A DNA stretch of 64,000 nt, from the NCBI RefSeq assembly GCF_988243305.1, contig NZ_OZ547136.1, one strand, 5' to 3'. This document shows, piece by piece, positions 1,926 to 54,533 of the stretch (positions are counted from its first letter, which is position 1; each line of letters opens with the position of its first letter). The notes below the pieces were generated by a model that worked only from the letters and a program-made list of their open reading frames with translations, had not been told where the DNA came from and made no database searches. Both the position numbers and the translations under genes were made by a program.

Positions 1926-2001
<76 letters not shown>

Positions 2002-2158
2002 AAATTTGAAAAGTGCTGCAAAGCACAGACCACCCAATCGCAGTATTTCGAATTGCGACAAGGCGGCAACTGAACGAATCCTTGGGAGCTTACAAAAGTA
2101 AGTGACTAAGGTGAGTGAAGGCAGCCAAGGCAGTAGCGGTTCGAAAAACGAAGATTAA

Positions 2159-2234
<76 letters not shown>

Positions 2235-2269
2235 AAATTTGAAAGTGCTATAAAGCACAGACCACCCAA

Positions 2270-2345
<76 letters not shown>

Positions 2346-39473: not shown

Positions 39474-40544
39474 TTATTTAATCCGGGCCATCGCGCTTCT
39501 CAGTGCCAAATCTGCCTCTTCCGTTATCTCCAGACTTTTCTGCAACACCGTTTCTGACCGGGACAGTGCCTGACGTGCTGCCAGCGGTTTCCGGATATGC
39601 TCCATCGTCAGCATCGTGTCCTCGTAGCCCTGCTGACGCCAGGCGTCGGTATGTGCCGACGTGAAACTGAGCAGACCGCCACTGTTGCCACCATCACCTG
39701 CATATTTCAGCCTTTTCCGGGGACGGATCTCAAGGATTGTGGTGTCCGGAAAAGCCTGGCGATCCCATAAAGAACCGTCACTCAGATGCGACACAATCAC
39801 CATATTGCATCCGGCATCGACCAGAGGCGTTACAGGGGTATTTCCCTGCATATTTCGCCATCCTCCCATACCACCATCACCGAACATTGTCCCCTGAACC
39901 TCACGGGGACGGAACAACAGGGGCAGTGCGGCTGACGCAAGCAGAGCCTCTTTCTGCTGTCCGCGGGGCAGACTCTGGATATGCTGAAAAACGGCGTTTT
40001 TCGTGGTTCCGGAACCCAGTTCAGCACGAATGCAGTCAATAATATCCTGCATGCCCCCTTCTGTGGGGTACAGCGACACATACAGCGGTAGCCCGTCTGC
40101 CAGAGCATCTGTATCAAGATAATGATCCATCAGCGCTGTCAGGGGCCCATCTGACAACAACGGCTGAGTCATCGGATTGTCGAAGCCGTTGATTATCGAT
40201 ATATGGCGAAGAAGTGTCGTAAGCAGTGCTCCTGCACGTCCGGGGATCTGGCAGAGGTTCATTGCCTGGAACAATTTTTTCAGCAATGAAAAGTAAACCG
40301 ATCGGTTTACCGACAGCACCTGATTATTCCCAAGATGATCCCAGAGCGCCTCCAGGCGTACGGCAGCTTCTGACAGATCGGGAGAGGCCGCGATAATGGC
40401 ACCATTGAATGCGCCAATGCTGGCCCCTGAAACCATGCTGATCTGTGTACCACACTCTGCCAGTGCCTTAACCACTCCCGCCTGATAAGCGCCCACCGCC
40501 CCACCGCCGGACAGCACCAGCCCTGTTTTTATTTCTATACTCAT
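39474..40544 (-). CDS. Patatin-like phospholipase
   Basis: 356 aa; oxyanion motif SGGGAVGAYQAG, nucleophile GASIG (GxSxG), catalytic Asp in FGDGG; ATG overlaps stop of upstream gene (ATGA). Confidence 0.85.
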   Translation of the reverse strand: MSIEIKTGLVLSGGGAVGAYQAGVVKALAECGTQISMVSGASIGAFNGAIIAASPDLSEAAVRLEALWDHLGNNQVLSVNRSVYFSLLKKLFQAMNLCQIPGRAGALLTTLLRHISIINGFDNPMTQPLLSDGPLTALMDHYLDTDALADGLPLYVSLYPTEGGMQDIIDCIRAELGSGTTKNAVFQHIQSLPRGQQKEALLASAALPLLFRPREVQGTMFGDGGMGGWRNMQGNTPVTPLVDAGCNMVIVSHLSDGSLWDRQAFPDTTILEIRPRKRLKYAGDGGNSGGLLSFTSAHTDAWRQQGYEDTMLTMEHIRKPLAARQALSRSETVLQKSLEITEEADLALRSAMARIK

Positions 40545-41446
40545 GCAGCCCCCTTCTGAAATATTTCATCGACCATACTTTCAGAGAGGCGTTCTGCAGA
40601 GCAGAGACGGGGCATGCGAACCGGTAAGTGTTCTGCAGCCTGCGTGGTTGACCAGATCACCGGATGCTGCTCTTCACTGCACCAGTCCCCCAGCCAGTTA
40701 ATCGCGTCATGCCACTCGTTATCTGCCTGCTCCCGGCCCTGACCACCAAGCCAGTCCAGAGTGTTCAGACGCACGGTTGCACTACCGCCACTCTCCTGTG
40801 CCATCTGCGTTAATGCTTTATGTCTGAGAATATCCAGTAGCTGGTTAACCTGGCCTGTTTCGCCCTGACGTATCACATCACCAAACGCGCCCCAGCGAAG
40901 CTCTTCAAGTGCCACATAACAACGTCCGGCAGGGGAAAATGACGCATATCGCCCGGCGCTCCACCAGGAGAATATCTGCTCAAGATGTAACTGCGCCCGC
41001 TGAACCAGGTCAACACGGTGGAGTTTTTCTTCAAGATGATTCAGTTTCTGGTGAACCTGATCGGCCAGGGTGAGTAACTGCTCCCGCGTATCTGCGGAAT
41101 AATGCGCCAGCCTGGCAGTATCACTGACCAGTGAACTGACCCTGTCGTTTACCCGGGTAATCGCGTAGTTTGTGGTGGCAAGTGACGTTGTCAGCTCCGT
41201 CAGCCAGCGCAGGGACGCCTCAACGCCCTGTGCAAGCGAAGCATTGATGGCATTCTGCCGTGCAGCACCTTCGCCGCTCAGCCCCTCTTTTAACCGCCGG
41301 AAGAACGTGCGCTCTCCGGCCGTACGGATATGCTCCTGTGCAACATCAATACCGTTTGCGAAATCAACCACAAATTTTTCAGGAAGACAGGTGAGTACCT
41401 GACATACCCGGTTATCAGCAATTTGTTGAATAAATGGTGAAGTCAC
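40541..41446 (-). CDS. YjcZ-like protein (partner of dynamin-like GTPase)
   Basis: 301-aa ORF; GTG start overlaps dynamin stop; family call from memory of chromosomal crfC-yjcZ pair. Confidence 0.65.
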   Translation of the reverse strand: MTSPFIQQIADNRVCQVLTCLPEKFVVDFANGIDVAQEHIRTAGERTFFRRLKEGLSGEGAARQNAINASLAQGVEASLRWLTELTTSLATTNYAITRVNDRVSSLVSDTARLAHYSADTREQLLTLADQVHQKLNHLEEKLHRVDLVQRAQLHLEQIFSWWSAGRYASFSPAGRCYVALEELRWGAFGDVIRQGETGQVNQLLDILRHKALTQMAQESGGSATVRLNTLDWLGGQGREQADNEWHDAINWLGDWCSEEQHPVIWSTTQAAEHLPVRMPRLCSAERLSESMVDEIFQKGAA

Positions 41447-43827
41447 AGCATTGTCTCCAGTTCTTCCCTTAACGCCTTACTGTCAGTAATGAGCTCAGGA
41501 ACCCTTTCATTTAACGCCTGAAGACGCCCGGTCAGCCGTTCCTGCGCCTGCTGATCGCGTTTATGATCTTCAGAGCTCTGAATCAGCGTGTTACGCAGCT
41601 GTTCAACTTTCTCCCTGAATGTACAGAAAAAGGCATCGATTTCCTGGCGGACGGGCTGGTTAATATCCTGCTCAATGGATGCCTGCAGCTCCCCGAAATA
41701 TGCCCGGGTCAGTGACATCACTTCCTCTCTGACCTTGTTGATATTGATCACGCTGCGGCTCACATCCACACTGTACTCTTTCCAGCCCCAGTCACTGGTG
41801 TTTGCCCATCGACAAAGCGTACCCCAGACACCATCCTGTCGACAGCGACGGGTTACTGTCTCCGTTCTTTCCTCCATAAGCGCGCTCAGATTTGTTTTTA
41901 CTGCGAGCCGGGTCTGTAACTGGCTGACTGCCGGAAAACTGATTTTTACAGTGAAACCTTCATCCTCCAGACGGGCATTGATGCGTCCGGCAATATTTTC
42001 TGTGGCGTACAGGGCCGTACCACGAAAACCTGTTTCAATACCCCTGACGATTTTTTCCAGTTCAGGACGGAACTGTGCTTCAGCCTCACGGTGCAGGCTG
42101 GTCACGGTCGATTCGATTTGCGTCATCAGTTCAAGGGCTTCCCTGCGATCACTGAATTTTATTTCGGGGCTGTCCGGATCAAAGTCCCGCATCCTGTCAT
42201 GCTGATTTCCGGTTCCGAAAATATCGTGAAAGAAAGCGAATGCGTTTCTCTCCCGGGGCTGCGCTGAATTTTCTTCCTCCAGCATTTGCTGTTCTTTGCG
42301 TTTACCGCTTCTGAAATAGTCATTCAGCTCCTCTTCCAGTGAGGTGCAGACCCCCGTCAGTAATTCCCGGGTTCTGGCATCGATCTCCTCCATGGCCATT
42401 CTGACATCAGCGGTCACCTGCTCCTGACAGTCCGCGATTTCCCGGATATCCGCAAGCAGGCTGGTGATATGCGACTGCAGTGACTGAATGCTTTGCTGTA
42501 GCCCCTGATGGCGTAATGACAGATATTCGCTGACATTTTCCGCATTCTGCATCAGTTTTGCGGCGGCAGAATCAACCGCCAGTGCCGCCGCTCTGGAATG
42601 GGAGCTCTGTATGACTTCCGTTATCAGTTGATCGATAAGTGAGCCTTCCCACAGGTCTGTCGCCCCTTCGGTTGCCATTTCACTGTCTTTACAGACGTAT
42701 TCTTTTTTCATGCGACCGAAGGCTTCCCTGACAAAATCATCGACCCAGGCTTCATCAACAGGAAGGGTTCTGTTTTTCCGTAACTCATGAAGCGCACGGT
42801 TAGCCAGGTACGCCTGACGTGATGAGCCTGGATAAACGCGGGAGGCGGGCAGCACATCGCTGTTCAGCATTGCCGGAACTTTCTGGCGTACGGCATCTGC
42901 CCCATCGCCATTGCGGTCTTTCTCATCAAATTTATTGACCAGCACAAACAGGCGGCCAGCTGATACGTCAGCAATGGCATTAAGCTCTTTACGGACGTCT
43001 TCATCCGCTTTTGAGTTCATCTGGGTGTAATCCATCACCGCCAGCACCGCAGAGGCTTTCTGCAGTTGATCCCGCATCATCACTTCCATCTGCGGTTGTC
43101 CGGCCTCATTAGGGCCGGGGGTATCCAGCAGTGTGAGTGTTCCCTGGCATGGATCCATCCCCACCAGATGGCTGAATTCCACGTCGATCACCGGCAGTTT
43201 CTGCACTTCTGCGTATTCATCAAAAGGAAACTCACTCCCCATTGCCGCAGCAAGGCGAACCAGATCGTTTAACGATGCCAGTCCGGTAAAAATTTCCTCC
43301 TCCCCGTGGTATTCATTTTTGAGCCAGCCATCATTTGCCAGAATATCCAGCAGTTCGCAGGTATCCCCGGTTTGCTGCAGGGTCTGTGCGACTTGCTGTC
43401 CTGCCGGGGTGTCGAGTTTTTGTTTCAGTGTGCTTAATAAATTGCGGACGGGCTGAATATGTTCCAGATGGAGGACCGGCTCAGTTTTTCCGGGAACGTG
43501 GCGGATGAGCGTCGGTACAGAGGTCATGGGGCGGTTACGGTTAGGCAGAATTTCCTGCCCCACAATGGCGTTGATGGTGGTTGATTTACCTGCTTTCATC
43601 GTGCCGACAACAGCCAGCACCATCTCCCTGCGGGCGGTTTTGATTTGTTCGCCCTCCAGCTCCTCAATTCTTTTCAGTGCTTTCTGTTTATCAAAAAGCA
43701 GTCTGTTTTCGTTCTTACTGTCAGATAACACATCCGGCTCATCAACCATTTGCCGGAGCAGATTAATGTTCAGTTGCAAAAGTCGGTCGGCTTCATCACA
43801 AAGCAGGGCGATGTTCTTTTCGTGCAT
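41443..43827 (-). CDS. Bacterial dynamin-like GTPase (CrfC/YjdA- and LeoA-like)
   Basis: 794 aa; G1 GTMKAGKST, G3 DTPGPNE, G4 NKFD; long helical C-terminal region; RBS AGGAAGG upstream of ATG 43827. Confidence 0.85.
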   Translation of the reverse strand: MHEKNIALLCDEADRLLQLNINLLRQMVDEPDVLSDSKNENRLLFDKQKALKRIEELEGEQIKTARREMVLAVVGTMKAGKSTTINAIVGQEILPNRNRPMTSVPTLIRHVPGKTEPVLHLEHIQPVRNLLSTLKQKLDTPAGQQVAQTLQQTGDTCELLDILANDGWLKNEYHGEEEIFTGLASLNDLVRLAAAMGSEFPFDEYAEVQKLPVIDVEFSHLVGMDPCQGTLTLLDTPGPNEAGQPQMEVMMRDQLQKASAVLAVMDYTQMNSKADEDVRKELNAIADVSAGRLFVLVNKFDEKDRNGDGADAVRQKVPAMLNSDVLPASRVYPGSSRQAYLANRALHELRKNRTLPVDEAWVDDFVREAFGRMKKEYVCKDSEMATEGATDLWEGSLIDQLITEVIQSSHSRAAALAVDSAAAKLMQNAENVSEYLSLRHQGLQQSIQSLQSHITSLLADIREIADCQEQVTADVRMAMEEIDARTRELLTGVCTSLEEELNDYFRSGKRKEQQMLEEENSAQPRERNAFAFFHDIFGTGNQHDRMRDFDPDSPEIKFSDRREALELMTQIESTVTSLHREAEAQFRPELEKIVRGIETGFRGTALYATENIAGRINARLEDEGFTVKISFPAVSQLQTRLAVKTNLSALMEERTETVTRRCRQDGVWGTLCRWANTSDWGWKEYSVDVSRSVININKVREEVMSLTRAYFGELQASIEQDINQPVRQEIDAFFCTFREKVEQLRNTLIQSSEDHKRDQQAQERLTGRLQALNERVPELITDSKALREELETML

Positions 43828-44026
43828 TATTTAACCTTCCTGAGACGCATTTTCATGACAACCACGGAGGAGGTCATTTACTACAAACGATCGTTTATAA
43901 CGATCGATATACTCTATTAACTTGAGAAACACAACGCAAGGGGACAACCCGGGTATGGCTGCGTTTGCATAGTGTTTTCATGGAGTTAAAAATCTGTAAC
44001 AATAGCCTGGTACATCACCACCGGGT

Positions 44027-44899
44027 TCAGAAGAAAATCCAGTTCCATACCGCGCGGGCAACAGAGACCACCGAGTCACGGACGGCTCGCAGAACCGTAC
44101 GAGCCACAGAGGCAACACAGACGCTCTCCGCTGTGTCAAATATCCGGTCCACCGCACCGGTAAACTGTTCACGGGCCTGAGAGCGGACAGACTCCGTGCG
44201 CAGTTCGTCCTGCAGGCGGGTCATCAGGGGGCTGGCGGCATGGTCGGGAAGCGCTGTCATGAGCGCACTGACCAGCGTATCCAGTTCCCAGCCGGTGCAG
44301 GCCGATACGGCCACAACCGGATGTACGGGCCGGAACAGCCGGAATACCGCCTCCGTTTTCTCACGAATGTTCTGTGCCTGTGCGGGAGAAGGCTGAATGC
44401 CGGCCATATCCCATTCATGGCAGGGCTCCGTTTTGTCGGCCTGCGTCACCACAAACAGCACCTGCTGATGTCCCCGGTGCAGGATGTGTCGCCAGAAATA
44501 CTCATCCACAGACAGGGCACGGTCATCGGCTTTAATCAGCCACAGTACCAGGTCAAGTTCAGGCAGAATGTCACGGTACAGGGCTTCATACTCTGCATCC
44601 CTGTCCCGGCTCTCGCCCACCCCGGGCAGGTCAGTGATAATCATGCTGTGACCGTGGCCACTCAGACGGAAGCGCCGCACTTCCCGGGTGCCGGCGTGAA
44701 CATCACTGACCGGGGTGACCTCCCCCTGAAACAGCGCATTACAGAGTGAGGATTTACCGGCCCCGCTTTTACCCATAATGCCAATCACGGGTTCGTGACT
44801 GGTGAGTTTGCGCAGATGTTCCTGGATGTGACGGGAAAGTGAGTAAGGCAGGGAGGAGAGCGGTTTTTCAATTGCCTCAATGGCATCAGACGGATTCAT
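44027..44899 (-). CDS. YfjP/YeeP/YkfA-family GTPase of CP4-like islands
   Basis: ATG 44899 (MNPSDAIEAIEKPLSS...); P-loop GIMGKSGAGKSS, DLPG; possible upstream GTG start at 44962. Confidence 0.8.
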   Translation of the reverse strand: MNPSDAIEAIEKPLSSLPYSLSRHIQEHLRKLTSHEPVIGIMGKSGAGKSSLCNALFQGEVTPVSDVHAGTREVRRFRLSGHGHSMIITDLPGVGESRDRDAEYEALYRDILPELDLVLWLIKADDRALSVDEYFWRHILHRGHQQVLFVVTQADKTEPCHEWDMAGIQPSPAQAQNIREKTEAVFRLFRPVHPVVAVSACTGWELDTLVSALMTALPDHAASPLMTRLQDELRTESVRSQAREQFTGAVDRIFDTAESVCVASVARTVLRAVRDSVVSVARAVWNWIFF

Positions 44900-44983
44900 A
44901 CATGTATTCCCGGTGAAAAAAGACAAAACCCCCGCACACCGGAAAGGTGGCGGGGGACTCACAGAGATAATATATGTCTGAAA

Positions 44984-45901
44984 TTATCTGGAATGTCGGT
45001 ACCTTTTATACTCTTCAACAATCAGGTCATGCAGCATTTCGCCGGTACTGAGTCTTCTGACCCTCGATAATTCTTTGAGCTGCGCCCTGGTTTCTGCGTC
45101 AAGAAAAAACTGTACATTGACTTTATCTTCCTGCATTTTTTTGTACTTGCGCTGCGCCTTGGCCTTATTGAAACTGTTTCTGAAATTTTTTATATCGTCA
45201 GGTGAGGTGAGTGTACAGGTAACCCATATGTCAAATGAAAGGTGAATTGCGTGGTAAATATCAGCAGAACCAGGAAAACTGGCCAGTTTTTCCAGTGCAA
45301 TATTTTTTCCCTTCAAATAATTCCATGTCCATATGCATTCATGTTCGTTCTCCGGGAGGAGGTAACTGAAAGGACTCTTTGATTTAAATGCCCGTATCCA
45401 TCTGTCTTTGGTCTGGATTATCCACTCATCCCGCAAATTCTTATCAGAAAGAATATCGAGAACTCTGAGTATTTGTCTGAACTGTGTCGATGAGTCCGAC
45501 GGGAAGGCATTCCCTTCTAAATACTCTTCTTTAAGATACAGTTTATTCTTTTGAAGCAAGTCTGCACTTATTTTTGCCCTGTTATTCTGGATAAACTGCA
45601 TCAACAGATACCAGGAAAATAAGCATGCGCGTTCACTGCCCGCGATCCAGGATATTTTTTCCAGGGGGACCAGGAAGGCCTGGGCCTTCAGACGCATACC
45701 AGAAATGATTTGTTCAAGTTCAAAATCTGAAAGTGTGATGTTCAGATTTTCTCTGTTTTTTTTTATGTAAGCGATAAAACGTTCCGGGGGATCATAAACA
45801 TTAAGGGGCAGTACGGAGATATTACGCTCTCCAAGATAATAAGAGTAATACGCATTTGTTCTTTCATTCATAACCTTATCCGACAAAATTTTCTGAACCA
45901 T
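44984..45901 (-). CDS. AT-rich hypothetical protein with C-terminal ribbon-helix-helix-like segment
   Basis: 305-aa ORF; RBS GGAGAAAGGGG; C-terminus VQFFLDAETRAQLKELSRVRRLSTGEMLHDLIVEEYKRY resembles an RHH DNA-binding fold; base composition visibly lower in GC than neighbours. Confidence 0.7.
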   Translation of the reverse strand: MVQKILSDKVMNERTNAYYSYYLGERNISVLPLNVYDPPERFIAYIKKNRENLNITLSDFELEQIISGMRLKAQAFLVPLEKISWIAGSERACLFSWYLLMQFIQNNRAKISADLLQKNKLYLKEEYLEGNAFPSDSSTQFRQILRVLDILSDKNLRDEWIIQTKDRWIRAFKSKSPFSYLLPENEHECIWTWNYLKGKNIALEKLASFPGSADIYHAIHLSFDIWVTCTLTSPDDIKNFRNSFNKAKAQRKYKKMQEDKVNVQFFLDAETRAQLKELSRVRRLSTGEMLHDLIVEEYKRYRHSR

Positions 45902-47101
45902 CCCCTTTCTCCGGTTGCTTAAAAATTAAACACAACAAGGTGATAATAACATGATAAAAAGAAGTTTATAATGGTATATTAAGGTGGTCAATAAAAAGGC
46001 AATCTGCGCACTGTATAGTCATTATGACAGGAAATGCAGGAGGAAGGGAAGGTAACCGGCTTCGTTATGCTGACAGGAATACCTGTTATCATGGAAGTGC
46101 ATTCATGTGGCCGACGTAGCTTAAGAGGATGGAAGAGTGGAGACTGCAGACAGGGGGTATTGAAAGGTAAACATGTTTCGCCCGCCAGCTGCACCGGAGG
46201 CCAGCATCACTTTTTTTACGTTGTAACCTGGTATGCATTCCGGCTTTGATGATTACAGTCAGAGGGCAGCAGACTGACGTTATTTAACCGGACAGCAAAA
46301 TTATGGACACTGAAATATCGTCCGTTAATACCTCGTTTGTCGGTGTGGTATTCCCTGTATTACCGGCGTCACCGATAAAGAGAGTTATAAACGCCAGAAA
46401 GGTACCTGCTTTATGCCGGGGAACACTTATGGAAAATGAAGTCTGAAAAGGAGCACAATGAAAAGAGACGTGTCCCGTAAATATAACGAATCATCGCAGG
46501 ATATGCATTATCAGGTGATACCAGAGTGCATTAAACTGCCGTCACGGATAAGAATATACAACATTTCTGATAACAAAACATCATAACGTGTTTCAGATAT
46601 GTTCCGGCATCAGTCTGACGGATATTATTTCCCGGGAAAACAAACCTGCTACTGTGACGGTTAACTGTATCTGCATAAATTATTTATGATGAAAGAACAG
46701 TATTACGGATTCAAATATCATCCTGTTTGCATTCAGGCGGACATTCCCGGATGCCGAAAAGAATATCCTGCAGGCTGAGTGAGTCTCTTCCACAGTGCCG
46801 GGATCGCTGTCGCCACGTACATATTGTCACCAGGATGGGTATGTACCGCAGCATGCCATTTCTGGTGAATAACCGCACCTGCACATTCAGTCTGCTGAGA
46901 ACCTGGCGTGCATCGGGCTGTAAAGAACATCCCTGTCCGTGGCTCCTCTGGTGGTGTTGCCTGCTCAGTAATGACAGGATGCCCTTAAGACGCCCGTCAT
47001 GGCTCAGTATGATGACGACGAACACGCTCTGCAGGTGAGCATGCGGGGCCGGGAGCATCATCATTTCCGTATTTTGTCACACCTTCCGGAAGCAACCGGC
47101 A

Positions 47102-47798: not shown

Positions 47799-48005
47799 TT
47801 ACGGACGGGACTGTGCAATACGCGCCTGCAGCCAGGCTTCCACTTCACTTTTCAGCCATCGGGAACTGCGGCCCAGCTTGATGGGGGCCGGAAAGGCCCC
47901 ATCCCTGATGAGTTTGTAAAACCACTTATCGGTCAGGCCAGTCAGTTGAGTGATAAACGCCATGTCGACCATCTGGTCATCCATCAGTGAAACTGGGGTG
48001 GTCAT
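47799..48005 (-). CDS. AlpA-family prophage transcriptional regulator (excisionase-like HTH)
   Basis: 68-aa form from ATG 48005 after RBS GGAGG; MTTPVSLMDDQMVDMAFITQLTGLTDKWFYKLIRDGAFPAPIKLGRSSRWLKSEVEAWL. Confidence 0.8.
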   Translation of the reverse strand: MTTPVSLMDDQMVDMAFITQLTGLTDKWFYKLIRDGAFPAPIKLGRSSRWLKSEVEAWLQARIAQSRP

Positions 48006-48911
48006 GAGAATGTTCCTCCGGATGTTGTTAATCTCAACCGGCGTTGGTGATGAAAACAACGCACCACCTTCACCGGCATAACAACCGGGGAGAAACGTAA
48101 AAAATAATCGGGAATGTGACCGCCAGGAGATAAACGGGGGGATTGCGGTGGCTGAGCCGTACCGGTATGTCGGGTGGTTGTTGCGAAACGATGCTTCCGC
48201 ACGCGATAAAGGAGGGAGGACTTTCGTGAGACAAGGGGAAAACTAGCGTTCTGATAATTGCAGAGTTGTTTTTGAAGGCGGTTGTGGTATATCAGCCTGT
48301 GACCTGTGGGCAGGCGACAGTTATCACTGGTGGGATAATACTGTCTGATTGGTATTATAAATATATAAGAGAGATCAAACACATGAGATCAAACACATGA
48401 GTTCATATATGTGAAATAAATCTGTGAGTGTGATCAGCAGACCAGTCTACCCAGTAGCAACAGATTGCGTTGTACTCACAGGGTTATCCCTGATAACTGG
48501 CGTATAACCTGCGTACATAAAACGTACCTGCAATGCACCTGAACAGAGTGCATTAAGCATCCGCCTGAGCGGTAAACGTATCCGATCTGGTGAGTGACAG
48601 TCTGAGAGCATTCTCAGTAATCGCCCCCTTGTATCCTGGAAATTGGTTAAGATAACAGCGATTAGATTTGGCAAGGTGTATGCAGCCAGCAGCTTAACAT
48701 CTCAGCTAACTGGCTGGTTACCTTCAGGTTGTCGCAATGGCATCGGACATCCGGTGTCGGATAACTAAACGTAGCGTTAAGGCGATATTGCTGAGAGACC
48801 GGTTAAGTGGTTGCACGGGAGTAATGAGTTTGGGGAGGGCACCAGAATGCCAGGTTGGTGCGGTATGCTGACAGCATCCTGTTAACCGCAGCATAAAGTA
48901 ATGAGAGGCTA

Positions 48912-51094: not shown

Positions 51095-52633
51095 TTATTC
51101 AGTCGGCAGTGCTACGCGCCAGGGGAGCAGTTCGCCGACCCGGTTTATCGGCCAGTCGGCTATGACGTCAAGGACATAGCGGAGGTAGCTTTCTGGCTCC
51201 ACTCCGTTCAGTTTGCACGTCCCGATCAGGCTGTACAGCAGCGCTCCCCGCTCTCCTCCATGATCCGAACCGAAGAACAGGTAGTTTTTGCGGCCCAGAC
51301 TGACCATCCGCAACGCATTTTCAGCGATGTTATTGTCCGCCTCAGCCCAGCCATCATCTGCATAGTACGTCAGCGCCGGCCACTGGTTCAGGGCGTATGC
51401 GAACGCTTTCGCCAGTTCTGAGTGTCGCGACAGGGTTTTCATCTTTTCACGCAGCCAGCTTTCCAGGGATTTCAGCAGCGGTTTCGTTTTCAACTGACGT
51501 TCGGCAAGGCGCTGTTCCGCCGTCATTCCCCTTATCTCTGCCTCGATGGCGTACAGTTCGCCGATCCGTTTCAGCGCTTCCTCCGTCAGGGCTGACGGGG
51601 TGCGAACGTGCACATCGTGGATTTTACGGCGGGCGTGAGCCCAACAGGCGGCTTCCGTTATCCGGCCATCCCGGTACAGCTCGTTGAACCCGGCGTATGC
51701 ATCCGCCTGCAGTACACCACTGAACCCCGCAAGATGGGTCTGCGGATGGATGCCTTTTCTGTCCGGGCTGTAAGCGAACCACACCGCCGGCGCCAGCGTT
51801 GACCCGGCGTTACGGTCGTCACGAACATACGCCCACAACCGCTCGGTCTTCGTTTTCTTATTGCCTGGCAACAGCACCGGGACAGGCGTGTCATCAACAT
51901 GGAGCTTACCGTCAGTCAGCACATAGCCATGAAGCGCCTCTTCCAGCGGAGACAGCTGCCGGCAGCATGCATCCACCCAGCCCGACAGCAGTGAACGGCT
52001 CAGCTCCACACCTTGCCGGCCGTATATTTCTGACTGGCGATACAGCGGGGTGTGCTCTGCATACTTCGAGGTCAGCACGCGGGCCAGCAGCCCCGGTCCG
52101 GCGATACCCCGCTCGATGGGCCGCGAAGGTGCAGGTGCCTGCACGATGGCATCGCACTGAGTACAGGCATGTTTTTCCCGTACCGTCCGGATAACCCGGA
52201 AGGCGCTACGCATCAACTCCAGCTGTTCGGCGATATCCTCGCCCAGATAGCTCAGTGAACCGCCGCAGTTCGGGCAGCACGGCGCCGCAGGCAACAGTCG
52301 CTTTTCGTCACGGGGTAGTGATTCAGGGAACGGCTTACGGGTGCGGGTCTGACGCAACGGACGCTGTACTGCCGGGTCATACACCCTACCAGTCAGCGTA
52401 TCGCTCTCTTTCTGAAGCCGGTTCAGATCGGCTTCCATTTGTGCGATACGGCGGGAGACTTTTTCGGAACGACTGCCGAAGTTCATCCGGCGGAGTTTAT
52501 CCAGCTGCGCCTGCAGATGGTCTATTTCGCGCTCCCGGTTGCTCAGCTTTTCCTGCAGGGCGTGGATCAGCGCTTCCTGTTCGGCCAGGCGCTGTTTCAG
52601 CAGGAAAATGTCGTCAGAAGAGATGTCGTTCAT
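51095..52633 (-). CDS. IS66-family transposase TnpC (full length)
   Basis: About 512 aa from [14 protein letters not shown]... (ORF extends to 52669); CxxC zinc motifs and DDE region. Confidence 0.85.
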
Positions 52634-53730
52634 ACATCGTGTATTTTTCGCCGGGCATGGACCCAGCACGCAACTTCTGTCTGTGCACCACCTTCACGTT
52701 TGGCACTGAACAGCCGATCGTAACCGCTGAATGCATCCGCCTGCAGGATACCCCGGAAGGGACGAAGGTGTTGTACCGGATGTTTTCCCTGCCTGTCTGG
52801 TGAGTAGGCGAACCAGACCGCCGGTGGCTCTGATGAGCCCGCATTCCGGTCATCCCGGACATACGTCCAGATGCGTCCTGTTTTTGCCTTTTTTCTGCCC
52901 GGTGTCAGCACTTTTACCGGTGTGTCGTCAGTGTGAACCTTGCGGGTGTTCATCACGTAACGGTACAGGGCATCATTCAGCGGAGTCATTAACTGGCAGC
53001 ACGCGTCAACCCAGTTGGAGATTAATGCACGGCTCAGTTCGGCACCCTGTCGGGCAAAGATTTCACTCTGACGATACAGTGGCAGGTGTTCGCAGTATTT
53101 TCCCGTTAACACGCGGGCAAGTAATCCGGAGCCCGCGATGCCGCGCGCTATCGGGCGGGACGGCGCTGGCGCTTCAACTATACAGTCACATTTTGTACAG
53201 GCTTTTTTTACCCGAACAGTGCGGATCACTTTCAGGGCGCTACTCACCAGTTCCAGCTGCTCAGCACTGACTTCACCCAGATAATCCAGCTCACTGCCAC
53301 ACTCCGGGCAACAACTTTCTTCAGGCTCCAGGCGGTGTATTTCACGGGGAAGATGTGCTGGTAACGGACGACGATGACGTGACTGTCGCAACTGGCGGGG
53401 AACCTGCGGGTCATCCTCACGCCCACTGTAACGATCGCTTTCCTGTTCGCGTTGTTTCAGTTGGGCCTCAGCCTGTTCAACCTCACGCTGCAGTTTTTCA
53501 GAACGGGTACCGAACAGCATCCGGCGCAGTTTTTCTATCTGGGCCCTCAGATATTCTATTTCCCGCTCCTCCTCTTCGATCTTTTCTTCGGCACGTGCCA
53601 GTGCAGAGCGCAGGAAGGCCTCCGTCTCTTCAACCAGACTCAGTTGCAGATCTCTCTGACGGAGGGCTTCAGCCTGCTCAGAGAGCAGCCTTTCCAGCTC
53701 AGTGATACGAATGAGGTATTTCCGACTCAT
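52630..53730 (-). CDS. IS66-family transposase TnpC, C-terminally truncated copy
   Basis: 366 aa [19 protein letters not shown]... ending at the conserved ARRKIHDV motif. Confidence 0.8.
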
Positions 53731-53760
53731 GACCGTTTTTATAATCCGGCCATGACATTT

Positions 53761-54111
53761 TTACAACATTGTCAGTGCGTTAAGACGGGATGTTTTTGGC
53801 TGACGCCAGTCCAGCTTATCGAGGAGCATTGCCAGCTGCGAGCGGGTAATGGATACCTTACCGTCACGCACCGCAGGCCAGATAAACAGGCCTTCCTCCA
53901 GGCGTTTGGTGAACAGGCACAGACCATCAGCATCAGCCCAGAGGATTTTAATCATGTCACTCCGTCGGCCACGGAAGATGAACAGGTGACCGGAGAAGGG
54001 GTTCTCATCCAGCACATGTTGTACCTGTTCCCCCAGACCGTTGAAGGATTTACGCATATCAGTAACGCCGGCAACCAGCGAGATTCGAGTGTCTGATGGG
54101 AGCGAGATCAT
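53761..54111 (-). CDS. IS66 accessory protein TnpB (Orf2)
   Basis: 116 aa MISLPSDTRISLVAGVTDMRKSFNGL... Confidence 0.85.
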   Translation of the reverse strand: MISLPSDTRISLVAGVTDMRKSFNGLGEQVQHVLDENPFSGHLFIFRGRRSDMIKILWADADGLCLFTKRLEEGLFIWPAVRDGKVSITRSQLAMLLDKLDWRQPKTSRLNALTML

Positions 54112-54533
54112 CGCCCCCTCCCGGTCAGTTCACGGATCAACACCGTGAGCAGCTCTGGTGAAGGATTTTCCAGCGTCATGTTACCGTGGCGGAACTCAAC
54201 TTTACAGGAACTGGCACTGACTGTGCTTTGTGAAGGAGTGGATAAAAGCGGAGTAAGAGCCGCCATAGGCTCTTTCTGCTCATCAGGCGTTATCTCAACA
54301 GGTAATAATTCAACGCCAGCGTCAGAAGAGGTTGTTACCGGAAGACGCCGCGATATACGCCCTTCGTTCTGCCAGAGCCTGAGCCATTTGAACAGGAGGT
54401 TATCATTGATATCGTGTTCCCTGGCAATACGGGCAACAGAGGCTCCTGGTTGCAAAGCCAGTTTAACCATTTGAAGTTTAAACTCATTTGAAAATGTTCT
54501 GCGGGGTTCTGCGGATAATATTTTCTGTTCCAT
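54108..54533 (-). CDS. IS66 accessory protein TnpA (Orf1)
   Basis: 141 aa; HTH region; 4-nt overlap with tnpB. Confidence 0.85.
   Translation of the reverse strand: MEQKILSAEPRRTFSNEFKLQMVKLALQPGASVARIAREHDINDNLLFKWLRLWQNEGRISRRLPVTTSSDAGVELLPVEITPDEQKEPMAALTPLLSTPSQSTVSASSCKVEFRHGNMTLENPSPELLTVLIRELTGRGR

Follow-up and report, generated by a model that had tools for sequence, protein, structure and literature searches.

The window analyzed here is a 64,000-nucleotide (nt) stretch of contig NZ_OZ547136.1 (NCBI RefSeq assembly GCF_988243305.1), and it carries on its minus strand an island gene for a GTPase of the YfjP/YeeP/YkfA family whose start codon was called ambiguous in a first-pass annotation. 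Our comparisons with homologous loci indicate that this gene begins at the ATG at 44899, that a longer reading frame opening at a GTG farther upstream is an artefact of open reading frame (ORF) finding, and that the ~95 nt upstream constitute the family's own control cassette, which we infer to be an insulator. We give this combined reading a probability of roughly 0.8.

The GTPase is an ordinary member of its family. The protein matches Pfam MMR_HSR1 (1.1e-14), is 49-51% identical to YfjP and YkfA of Escherichia coli K-12, and has a P-loop GTPase core of the MMR_HSR1/Era type, including the G1 (GxxxxGKS), G3 (DxxG), and G4 (xQxDK) motifs. The first-pass annotation had proposed that an alignment with family N-termini might settle the start, and we made such an alignment from the window GTPase and 17 family members (K-12 YfjP and YkfA plus 15 others). 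The result favors 44899. All 18 proteins start at the equivalent methionine, M22 of the extended ORF, so the MNPSD sequence that had been regarded as the conserved start is just that. Other invariant positions (alignment A2) are G67, G69, K70, S71, and S72; D111, L112, P113, and G114; and Q174, D176, and K177. The window protein also has the family N-terminus, M-x-x-(S/P)-(D/E) at ~38 residues ahead of the P-loop, as well as the conserved C-terminal tail VARAVW(N/D)WIFF. Full-length database matches are mostly 287-291 amino acids (aa) long, with 18190 sequences of 290 aa forming the biggest cluster, and the RefSeq/PGAP coding sequence (CDS) in homologous loci is 873 nt, which corresponds to the ATG start. 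Among 5426 complete E. coli genomes, 4539 have a match to the GTPase region. Judged from these comparisons, the ambiguity of the start codon is of an ordinary kind and is resolved in favor of the ATG, from which the GTPase should be called in annotation.

The extended ORF (44027..44962, minus strand) does open at a GTG (44962-44960), as had been reported, and a proline-rich run of 21 residues, MSPPPPFRCAGVLSFFTGNTC, precedes the ATG. The corresponding 63 nt read GTGAGT-CCCCCGCCACC-TTTCC-GGTGTGCGGGGG-TTTTGTCTTTTTT-CACCGGGAATACATGT-ATG, and the proline codons (CCC CCG CCA CC...) are simply the C-rich 5′ arm of a leader hairpin. No Shine-Dalgarno (SD) sequence precedes the GTG, which directly follows ATTATCTCT. 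The chance of 21 stop-free codons is (61/64)^21, or ~0.36, and therefore an open extension with some GTG, TTG, or ATG upstream of the true start is no more than chance would provide. Furthermore, the GTG is out of frame in E. coli cM8a, E. coli S1-IND-02-A, and E. albertii, three of the six close relatives compared, owing to a 1-nt indel inside the extension (the 3′ arm of the hairpin is short of one G). The GTPase CDS is unaffected: in cM8a, the PGAP annotation has an intact CDS of 873 nt that begins at the ATG. In the 18-sequence protein alignment, we found no homologue with a conserved extension and a ribosome-binding site (RBS), which bears out the doubts that the extension had raised.

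One could still argue that the GTG is a genuine start in this genome and that the protein has a 21-residue proline-rich N-terminus. The codon is in frame, the frame is open back to the TAA of the upstream gene, and a few public gene callers do report extended forms (P0002, 355 aa; P0085, 303 aa). However, these rare extended calls diverge exactly where the stems differ, the codons of the extension coincide with a structured hairpin and its T-run, and the predicted transcription start falls within the GTG itself. Taken with the missing SD sequence, the frame-breaking indels, and the use of the ATG by RefSeq, these facts make a GTG start exceedingly improbable. Four independent lines, namely homologue starts, the 873-nt RefSeq CDS, frame-breaking indels, and stem-dependent extended calls, thus show that the extension is non-coding; it is a leader hairpin that was translated by an ORF finder. 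More generally, an ORF extension rich in proline or glycine codons just upstream of a conserved start is a warning sign of a translated terminator stem.

The nucleotides that precede the ATG are conserved in their own right. One genome per species was scanned, which yielded 80 loci, and comparison among these reveals the cassette in ~55 Enterobacterales loci of many genera, with GTPase identity down to ~42%. Its elements occur in a fixed order: TTnnAA; a 15-nt spacer with TTTCAGAyAkA; TAT(T/C)AT; 6 nt; TGA; a GC-rich hairpin, usually with a T-run; an RBS; and the ATG. In an alignment of 56 leader sequences (A3), A9, A11, T12, A13, T14, A16, and G24 are invariant, and C4, A5, T17, T23, and A25 are conserved in at least 90%. 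A position-weight matrix (PWM) scan finds the motif once per locus and always ahead of the GTPase gene, with a second copy in the island of the window as the one exception. The version in the window, TTCCAG-15-TATTAT, has σ70 geometry (both hexamers, a spacing within 15-19 nt, and the conserved A(-11) and T(-7)). It was not listed by a generic promoter scan, which covered 16-18-nt spacers only. The SD sequence of the cassette, between the T-run and the ATG, is a weak one. In K-12, genomic SELEX has located RpoD-holoenzyme binding sites in the rnlB-yfjP and perR-ykfA spacers, and the promoter predicted there for both yfjP and ykfA, TTGAAA-15-TATCAT, is the cassette motif; these promoters were classed as constitutive RNA polymerase binding sites (Shimada 2014, PMC3946193). 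The ~95-nt region is the family's own conserved control cassette, with its native promoter region intact, and it has apparently not been described before.

Two other candidates in the leader were considered and set aside. An additional promoter ahead of the ATG but behind the T-run has no conserved candidate and would not fit, as these are only 16-25 nt apart, and therefore every GTPase transcript must cross the hairpin/T-run element. The segments TTCAGA...TCTGAA around the -10 element could be imagined to form an RNA helix (seg1:seg2), but this pairing would have only 4-6 base pairs (bp) without consistent covariation, and we have treated the pattern as a DNA-level near-palindrome or a coincidence. 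A separate observation concerns the opposite strand of the K-12 ykfA leader, where plus-strand antisense Cappable-seq starts lie within and just upstream of that leader (U00096.2 positions 268186, 268258, and 268350, the last of which is strong with a score of 28). These starts hint at divergent or antisense transcription around the cassette.

The hairpin between the predicted promoter and the ATG has the characteristics of an intrinsic terminator: an 11-bp stem with one bulge, a 5-nt loop, and then TTTTGTCTTTTTT. Its predicted folding energy as RNA is -22.5 kcal/mol (z = -4.1), a stability that is reached by 0 of 200 shuffled sequences, and a consensus terminator scan lists part of it as terminator-like. 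Evidence for its conservation comes from the yfjP/ykfA-like clade (clade B, 24 sequences), for which RNAalifold predicts a 9-bp stem with double compensatory changes at 7 pairs. In this clade, 92.6% of cells in the stem are paired, compared to 82.7±1.2 in column shuffles (0/500) and ≤52% in slid controls, and the covariation score is 0.389, compared to 0.201 in shuffles (0/500) and ≤0.153 in slid controls. Stems at the same place in different clades are unrelated to each other (CCCCCGCCACC, GGCCATCC, GAGGAATAC, GTGGCGGC, and CGCCTGAAT), and thus it is the structure of the hairpin that is conserved and not its sequence. A global MAFFT alignment of all 56 leaders gave no consensus structure with RNAalifold because the hairpins of different clades were misaligned; per-clade alignments worked. 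A T-run follows the hairpin in most loci and is weak or absent in Pectobacterium and Kosakonia, and the GC-rich hairpin itself is absent from Providencia and Proteus loci. The possibility that the hairpin is a dispersed repeat was rejected, given that it is present in a single copy in the window. Rfam produced no match at E≤1 for window positions 43000-47000, and for the K-12 loci it produced only a chance-level match to sbrA (23 bits versus a gathering score of 45, E = 0.5).

A second structure encloses the first. When RNA from 44983 to 44897, which begins upstream of the predicted start, is folded, an outer helix is predicted around the hairpin (-32.4 kcal/mol, z = -4.75), and in this helix a segment spanning the -10 element and predicted start site acts as an anti-SD arm that pairs with the translation initiation region. 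K-12 yfjP has a similar predicted outer fold, and so does a Providencia locus in which the inner hairpin is missing. The two arms covary between clades (CTCAG/CTGAG, TCCTC/GAGGA, CATCC/GGAGATG, TCCTT/AAGGA, and ACTGTGAGT/ACTCACGG). The self-duplex energies of short arms from 24 sequence types sum to -152.7, compared to -115.2±9.2 for permuted partners (1/20000), and those of extended arms from 27 sequence types sum to -266.4, compared to -204.7±12.4 (0/20000), in tests that ignore the relatedness of the sequences. Averaged over the same 27 types, the initiation region is paired with a probability of 0.62 in read-through RNA, 0.44 in RNA from the predicted start, and 0.53 with a shuffled 5′ extension. 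The values for the window are 0.80, 0.32, and 0.46±0.12, respectively. Pairing is higher with the real 5′ extension than with a shuffled one in 22 of 27 types (Wilcoxon p ~6e-5), and none of the 40 shuffles made for the window gives as high a value. Four Providencia/Proteus loci (L055, L056, L059, and L060; ~2912-2973) keep the promoter motif and the outer helix, the latter with changed sequence (TCCTTGAA/TTCAAGGA), but the arms there enclose neither a GC-rich hairpin nor a T-run. The hairpin and the outer helix are therefore separable in evolution.

The location of the cassette within the island suggests what it might be for. The 800 bp upstream of it fall into 42 similarity clusters among 58 loci, whereas the 800 bp downstream of the GTPase gene fall into 9 clusters among 54 loci, the largest two of which hold 29 and 14 loci. 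The cassette is therefore the first conserved backbone element that adjoins hypervariable cargo. On the same strand at 32.8-37.7 kb, the window carries genes for DUF932, Antirestrict, RadC, CbeA, CbtA, and DUF4942 proteins. The homologous loci L001 and L002 are annotated alike, and the general setting of the family is CP4-57/CP4-44-like islands, upstream of DUF932, antirestriction, RadC, DUF987, and CbeA/CbtA genes. As far as the compared loci can tell, the cassette sits exactly where hypervariable cargo on its upstream side meets a conserved backbone that consists of the GTPase gene and then usually DUF932. For a very common family of islands in enterobacteria, it marks precisely where cargo and backbone meet.

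This arrangement also bears on the proposal of the first-pass annotation that an AT-rich gene was inserted upstream and replaced the native promoter and 5′ end. The neighboring 305-aa ORF is indeed AT-rich, with a GC content of 0.37-0.43 across ~44900-46100 versus 0.57-0.63 within the GTPase gene. It also ends very near the GTG, although the distance from its TAA (44986-44984) is 21 nt and not the 22 bp originally given. This single TAA separates it from the GTG ORF, and the two share a frame by coincidence. If such an insertion had occurred, then the GTPase would depend on read-through from the AT-rich gene, and both the sharp drop in GC at 44900-46100 and the stop codon that abuts the leader could be viewed in this light. 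However, ~55 family members with unrelated neighbors have upstream regions that align with the ~95 nt, including the -35-like element within the last codons of the ORF. Moreover, a terminator-type hairpin lies between the two genes, and the gene pair is not unique to this genome. Of 5426 complete E. coli genomes, 1285 cover at least 80% of a 2.5-kb query that includes the 305-aa gene, the GTPase gene, and flanks; the downstream cargo in these genomes is either dynamin/RdcB-like/patatin or Ag43. The pair is also found in a Serratia locus. The comparative data thus refute a replacement of the promoter and 5′ end by an insertion, and the 305-aa gene is not a private insertion but one of the variable cargoes, which ends exactly at the cassette edge. 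Its protein belongs to no family in Pfam, NCBIfam, PADLOC, or PHROGs. The last ~40 residues (VQFFLDAETRAQLKELSRVRRLSTGEMLHDLIVEEY) resemble a ribbon-helix-helix DNA-binding domain (RHH_1, E = 0.06, below threshold).

Given these features, we propose that the cassette acts as an insulator, which would shield the backbone operon at two levels from transcripts that arise in the variable cargo. The hairpin and T-run would stop read-through from the cargo. Any read-through RNA that escapes would carry the anti-SD arm (44976-44958), fold back on the SD sequence and AUG, and be poorly translated. Transcripts from the cassette's own promoter, which would begin at ~44960, would lack the anti-SD arm and thus have an open initiation region. 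The hairpin is downstream of the predicted start and would thus be expected to dampen transcription from the cassette's own promoter as well, with low expression unless read-through is partial or assisted. A broader proposal, to which we give somewhat less than even odds, is that the cassette is an undescribed and widely conserved cis-regulatory module of P4/CP4-57-like islands that occupies the cargo/backbone boundary and protects the backbone, either through the leader terminator and anti-SD arm or as a factor-dependent antitermination switch. Such a module would suggest how these islands bear constant exchange of cargo without deregulating the GTPase, DUF932, antirestriction, RadC, and CbtA/CbeA genes.

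Several facts weigh against the insulator interpretation. A terminator located downstream of the gene's own predicted start means that expression needs partial read-through or an unknown antitermination factor, and a 15-nt spacer makes for a weak promoter. The K-12 transcript maps that were searched do not reveal the expected ends: Cappable-seq entries in the stretch covered are on the plus strand only; the list of transcription start sites from Kim 2012 has only weak starts for ykfA, 265 and 506 nt upstream, and none at the predicted base; the Term-seq supplements of Adams 2021 have no 3′ end for the yfjP or ykfA leaders; and SMRT-Cappable-seq data have no 5′ end at the predicted yfjP and ykfA positions. 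Taken by itself, a simple terminator scan of the region finds no more than chance would give (2 hits against 2.5 expected). The fold-back complementarity is also uneven, being strong in ~10 of 27 sequence types and absent in ~8 (~30%), and the permutation tests that support it do not account for shared ancestry.

Two other regulatory explanations start from the same promoter, hairpin, and T-run. The main rival is a regulated antitermination switch of the type exemplified by phage Q or Pseudomonas aeruginosa AlpA, wherein an island- or host-encoded factor would bind the unusually conserved promoter spacer or the TTCA-N17-TGAA near-palindrome around the -10 element, load onto RNA polymerase, and permit it to pass the terminator. 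The order of promoter, short leader, intrinsic terminator, and operon is that of lambda PR'-tR' and PalpB-tB, where the binding element is located between -35 and -10 and is followed by terminators that begin at +26 to +54 (PMC7969949). The spacer sequence TTTCAGAyAkA is conserved in the cassette (C4 and A5 at ≥90%, A9 invariant), and the constitutive class of the K-12 promoters (PMC3946193) would also suit such a switch. However, Pfam scans of the island ORFs revealed no protein like Q or P. aeruginosa AlpA, and antitermination leaves the anti-SD complementarity unexplained. An AlpA-family helix-turn-helix (HTH) protein encoded in the window (47799-48059) was tried as the missing factor and rejected. 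A PDB sequence search with it gave only 8c3t (an AlpA-family phage regulatory protein) and TorI, with no P. aeruginosa AlpA antiterminator chains; the latter protein is larger with a 21Q-like fold, whereas the window protein is of the excisionase type. We view a switch of this kind as unlikely.

Alternatively, the promoter and terminator might constitute an independent gene for a small RNA (sRNA) of ~45-55 nt that lies ahead of the GTPase gene by chance. The predicted transcript from 44960 to ~44916 is indeed a hairpin with a U-tail, and members of the yfjP/ykfA clade have a conserved 17-nt single-stranded 5′ segment (GAACAUACC..UAAC) before the hairpin, as in Hfq-type sRNAs. In the clade of the window, however, only 4 nt lie ahead of the hairpin and there is no seed, and hence an sRNA is unlikely there. 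The lack of a hairpin in Providencia/Proteus loci and of any Rfam match also counts against the idea, as does the fact that the GTPase gene is transcribed through the element for want of promoter room behind the T-run. Overall, an independent sRNA gene seems quite improbable, and insulation by the cassette continues to be our preferred explanation for its conserved structures.

Elements with a related logic have precedent among insertion sequences. Read-through transcripts of IS10 and IS50 are reportedly subject to "fold-back inhibition" (Davis, Simons and Kleckner 1985; Schulz and Reznikoff 1991). As in these elements, the 5′ arm of the putative RBS-sequestering helix of the cassette would be upstream of the gene's own start, which in the window is a predicted one (the arm maps to -10..+3 of the predicted promoter), such that only external transcripts would be silenced. 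Unlike in these elements, about a third of the sequence types show strong complementarity of the kind seen in the window and ~30% show none. The cassette can also be compared with the left end of IS200, which has a terminator against impinging transcription and a stem-loop in the tnpA 5′ untranslated region that sequesters the SD sequence (PMC4513863). In contrast to IS200, the window element would guard not a transposase gene but a GTPase-led backbone operon of a P4/CP4-57-like island, and its terminator-like hairpin is enclosed by the putative SD-sequestering helix and follows the predicted start. The two have no sequence similarity.

The cassette resembles lambda PR'-qut-tR' and PalpB-ABE-tB in combining a constitutive promoter, a conserved element in the spacer region, and an intrinsic terminator within tens of nt before an operon (PMC7969949). 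It differs from them in that no antiterminator protein has been identified in the island and no sigma-dependent pause element was recognized. K-12 yfjP (CP4-57) and ykfA (CP4-6) belong to the same GTPase family and have the same cassette architecture upstream. Their hairpin stems are unrelated in sequence to that of the window, the window leader is shorter (hairpin at +5 versus +19), and the downstream cargo of the window is dynamin/RdcB-like/patatin instead of yfjQ directly. A third K-12 gene of the family, yeeP (CP4-44), is a 5′-truncated pseudogene without the cassette.

Table 1. Features of the GTPase locus and its leader, with window coordinates and the evidence for each assignment.
Feature	Position	Strand	Basis
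GTPase CDS, YfjP/YeeP/YkfA family, 290 aa, MNPSD start	44027..44899	-	Pfam; homologue alignment; RefSeq CDS length
Outer helix, 3′ arm (translation initiation region: TTCACC; SD-like GGGAA, 44911-44907; ATG, 44899-44897)	44897..44917	-	Fold; pairing probabilities
Spurious 21-codon GTG extension, non-coding leader	44900..44962	-	Overlies hairpin and T-run; indels; no conservation; no SD
T-run TTTTGTCTTTTTT, 3′ of hairpin, intrinsic-terminator-like	44916..44928	-	Terminator scan; T-run common across loci
GC-rich leader hairpin, CCCCCGCCACC-TTTCC-GGTGTGCGGGGG	44929..44956	-	Folding energy; shuffles; covariation in clade B
Outer helix, 5′ arm (-10, discriminator, start-site region; anti-SD)	44958..44976	-	Fold of RNA 44983->44897; permutation tests
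Predicted transcription start, G (7th nt after -10; third base of the GTG)	44960	-	G24 invariant in A3; promoter geometry
-10-like TATTAT	44967..44972	-	A11, T12, A13, T14, A16 invariant and T17 ≥90% (A3)
AT-rich 305-aa ORF, hypothetical protein, variable-cargo side of junction	44984..45901	-	RefSeq hypothetical; TAA at edge of conserved cassette
-35-like TTCCAG, inside last codons of 305-aa ORF	44988..44993	-	TTnnAA kept at 15-nt spacing from -10 across loci

Additional observations concern the cargo that lies between the GTPase gene and the rest of the backbone. The 200-nt spacer from the GTPase stop codon to the next gene contains a further terminator-like hairpin (CGATCGTTATAAACGATCG then TTTGTAGTAA; 43888-43906, minus strand). 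Beyond it, on the minus strand at 39474-43827, are genes for a 794-aa dynamin-family protein, a 301-aa YjcZ/RdcB-family protein, and a 356-aa patatin-like phospholipase, and each of the last two genes has a start codon that overlaps the stop codon before it. The 794-aa protein is CrfC/RdcA-like (NCBIfam PRK09866, 7.5e-168, below its cutoff), and PADLOC gave only weak LeoBC/phospholipase-effector matches for the trio. The trio itself resembles a paralogous version of the yjdA-yjcZ pair of K-12 to which a lipase has been added.

Directly behind the patatin gene is the second occurrence of the promoter motif, TTGAAA-15-TATTAC (39382..39408, minus strand; also at 15880-15990 of L001, by PWM and pattern scans), which shares TTTCAGATATATAT. 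Here a terminator-like hairpin (GCCACCGCCTGTGGTGGTG + TTTTT) precedes the motif and does not follow it (region 39382-39460). The motif is upstream of a short Ivy-like gene (ATGAAATTCATCGTAAAAGCACTT...), a member of the lysozyme inhibitor-like Ivy family, which is cut 24 nt into its sequence by IS1 (38540-39310, minus strand). This IS1 insertion also appears in the annotation of E. coli cM8a (L001).

No integrase gene was seen in the examined part of the window. At 51095-54533 (minus strand) are tandem ORFs for IS66-family transposases, one complete (524 aa) and one truncated in its DDE domain (366 aa), together with IS66 TnpB and TnpA genes. This arrangement suggests that one IS66-type element was inserted into another, and the site may possibly be the far end of the island. 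Three tandem tRNA-Gly(GCC) genes are located at 1926-2345 (plus strand), far from the island.

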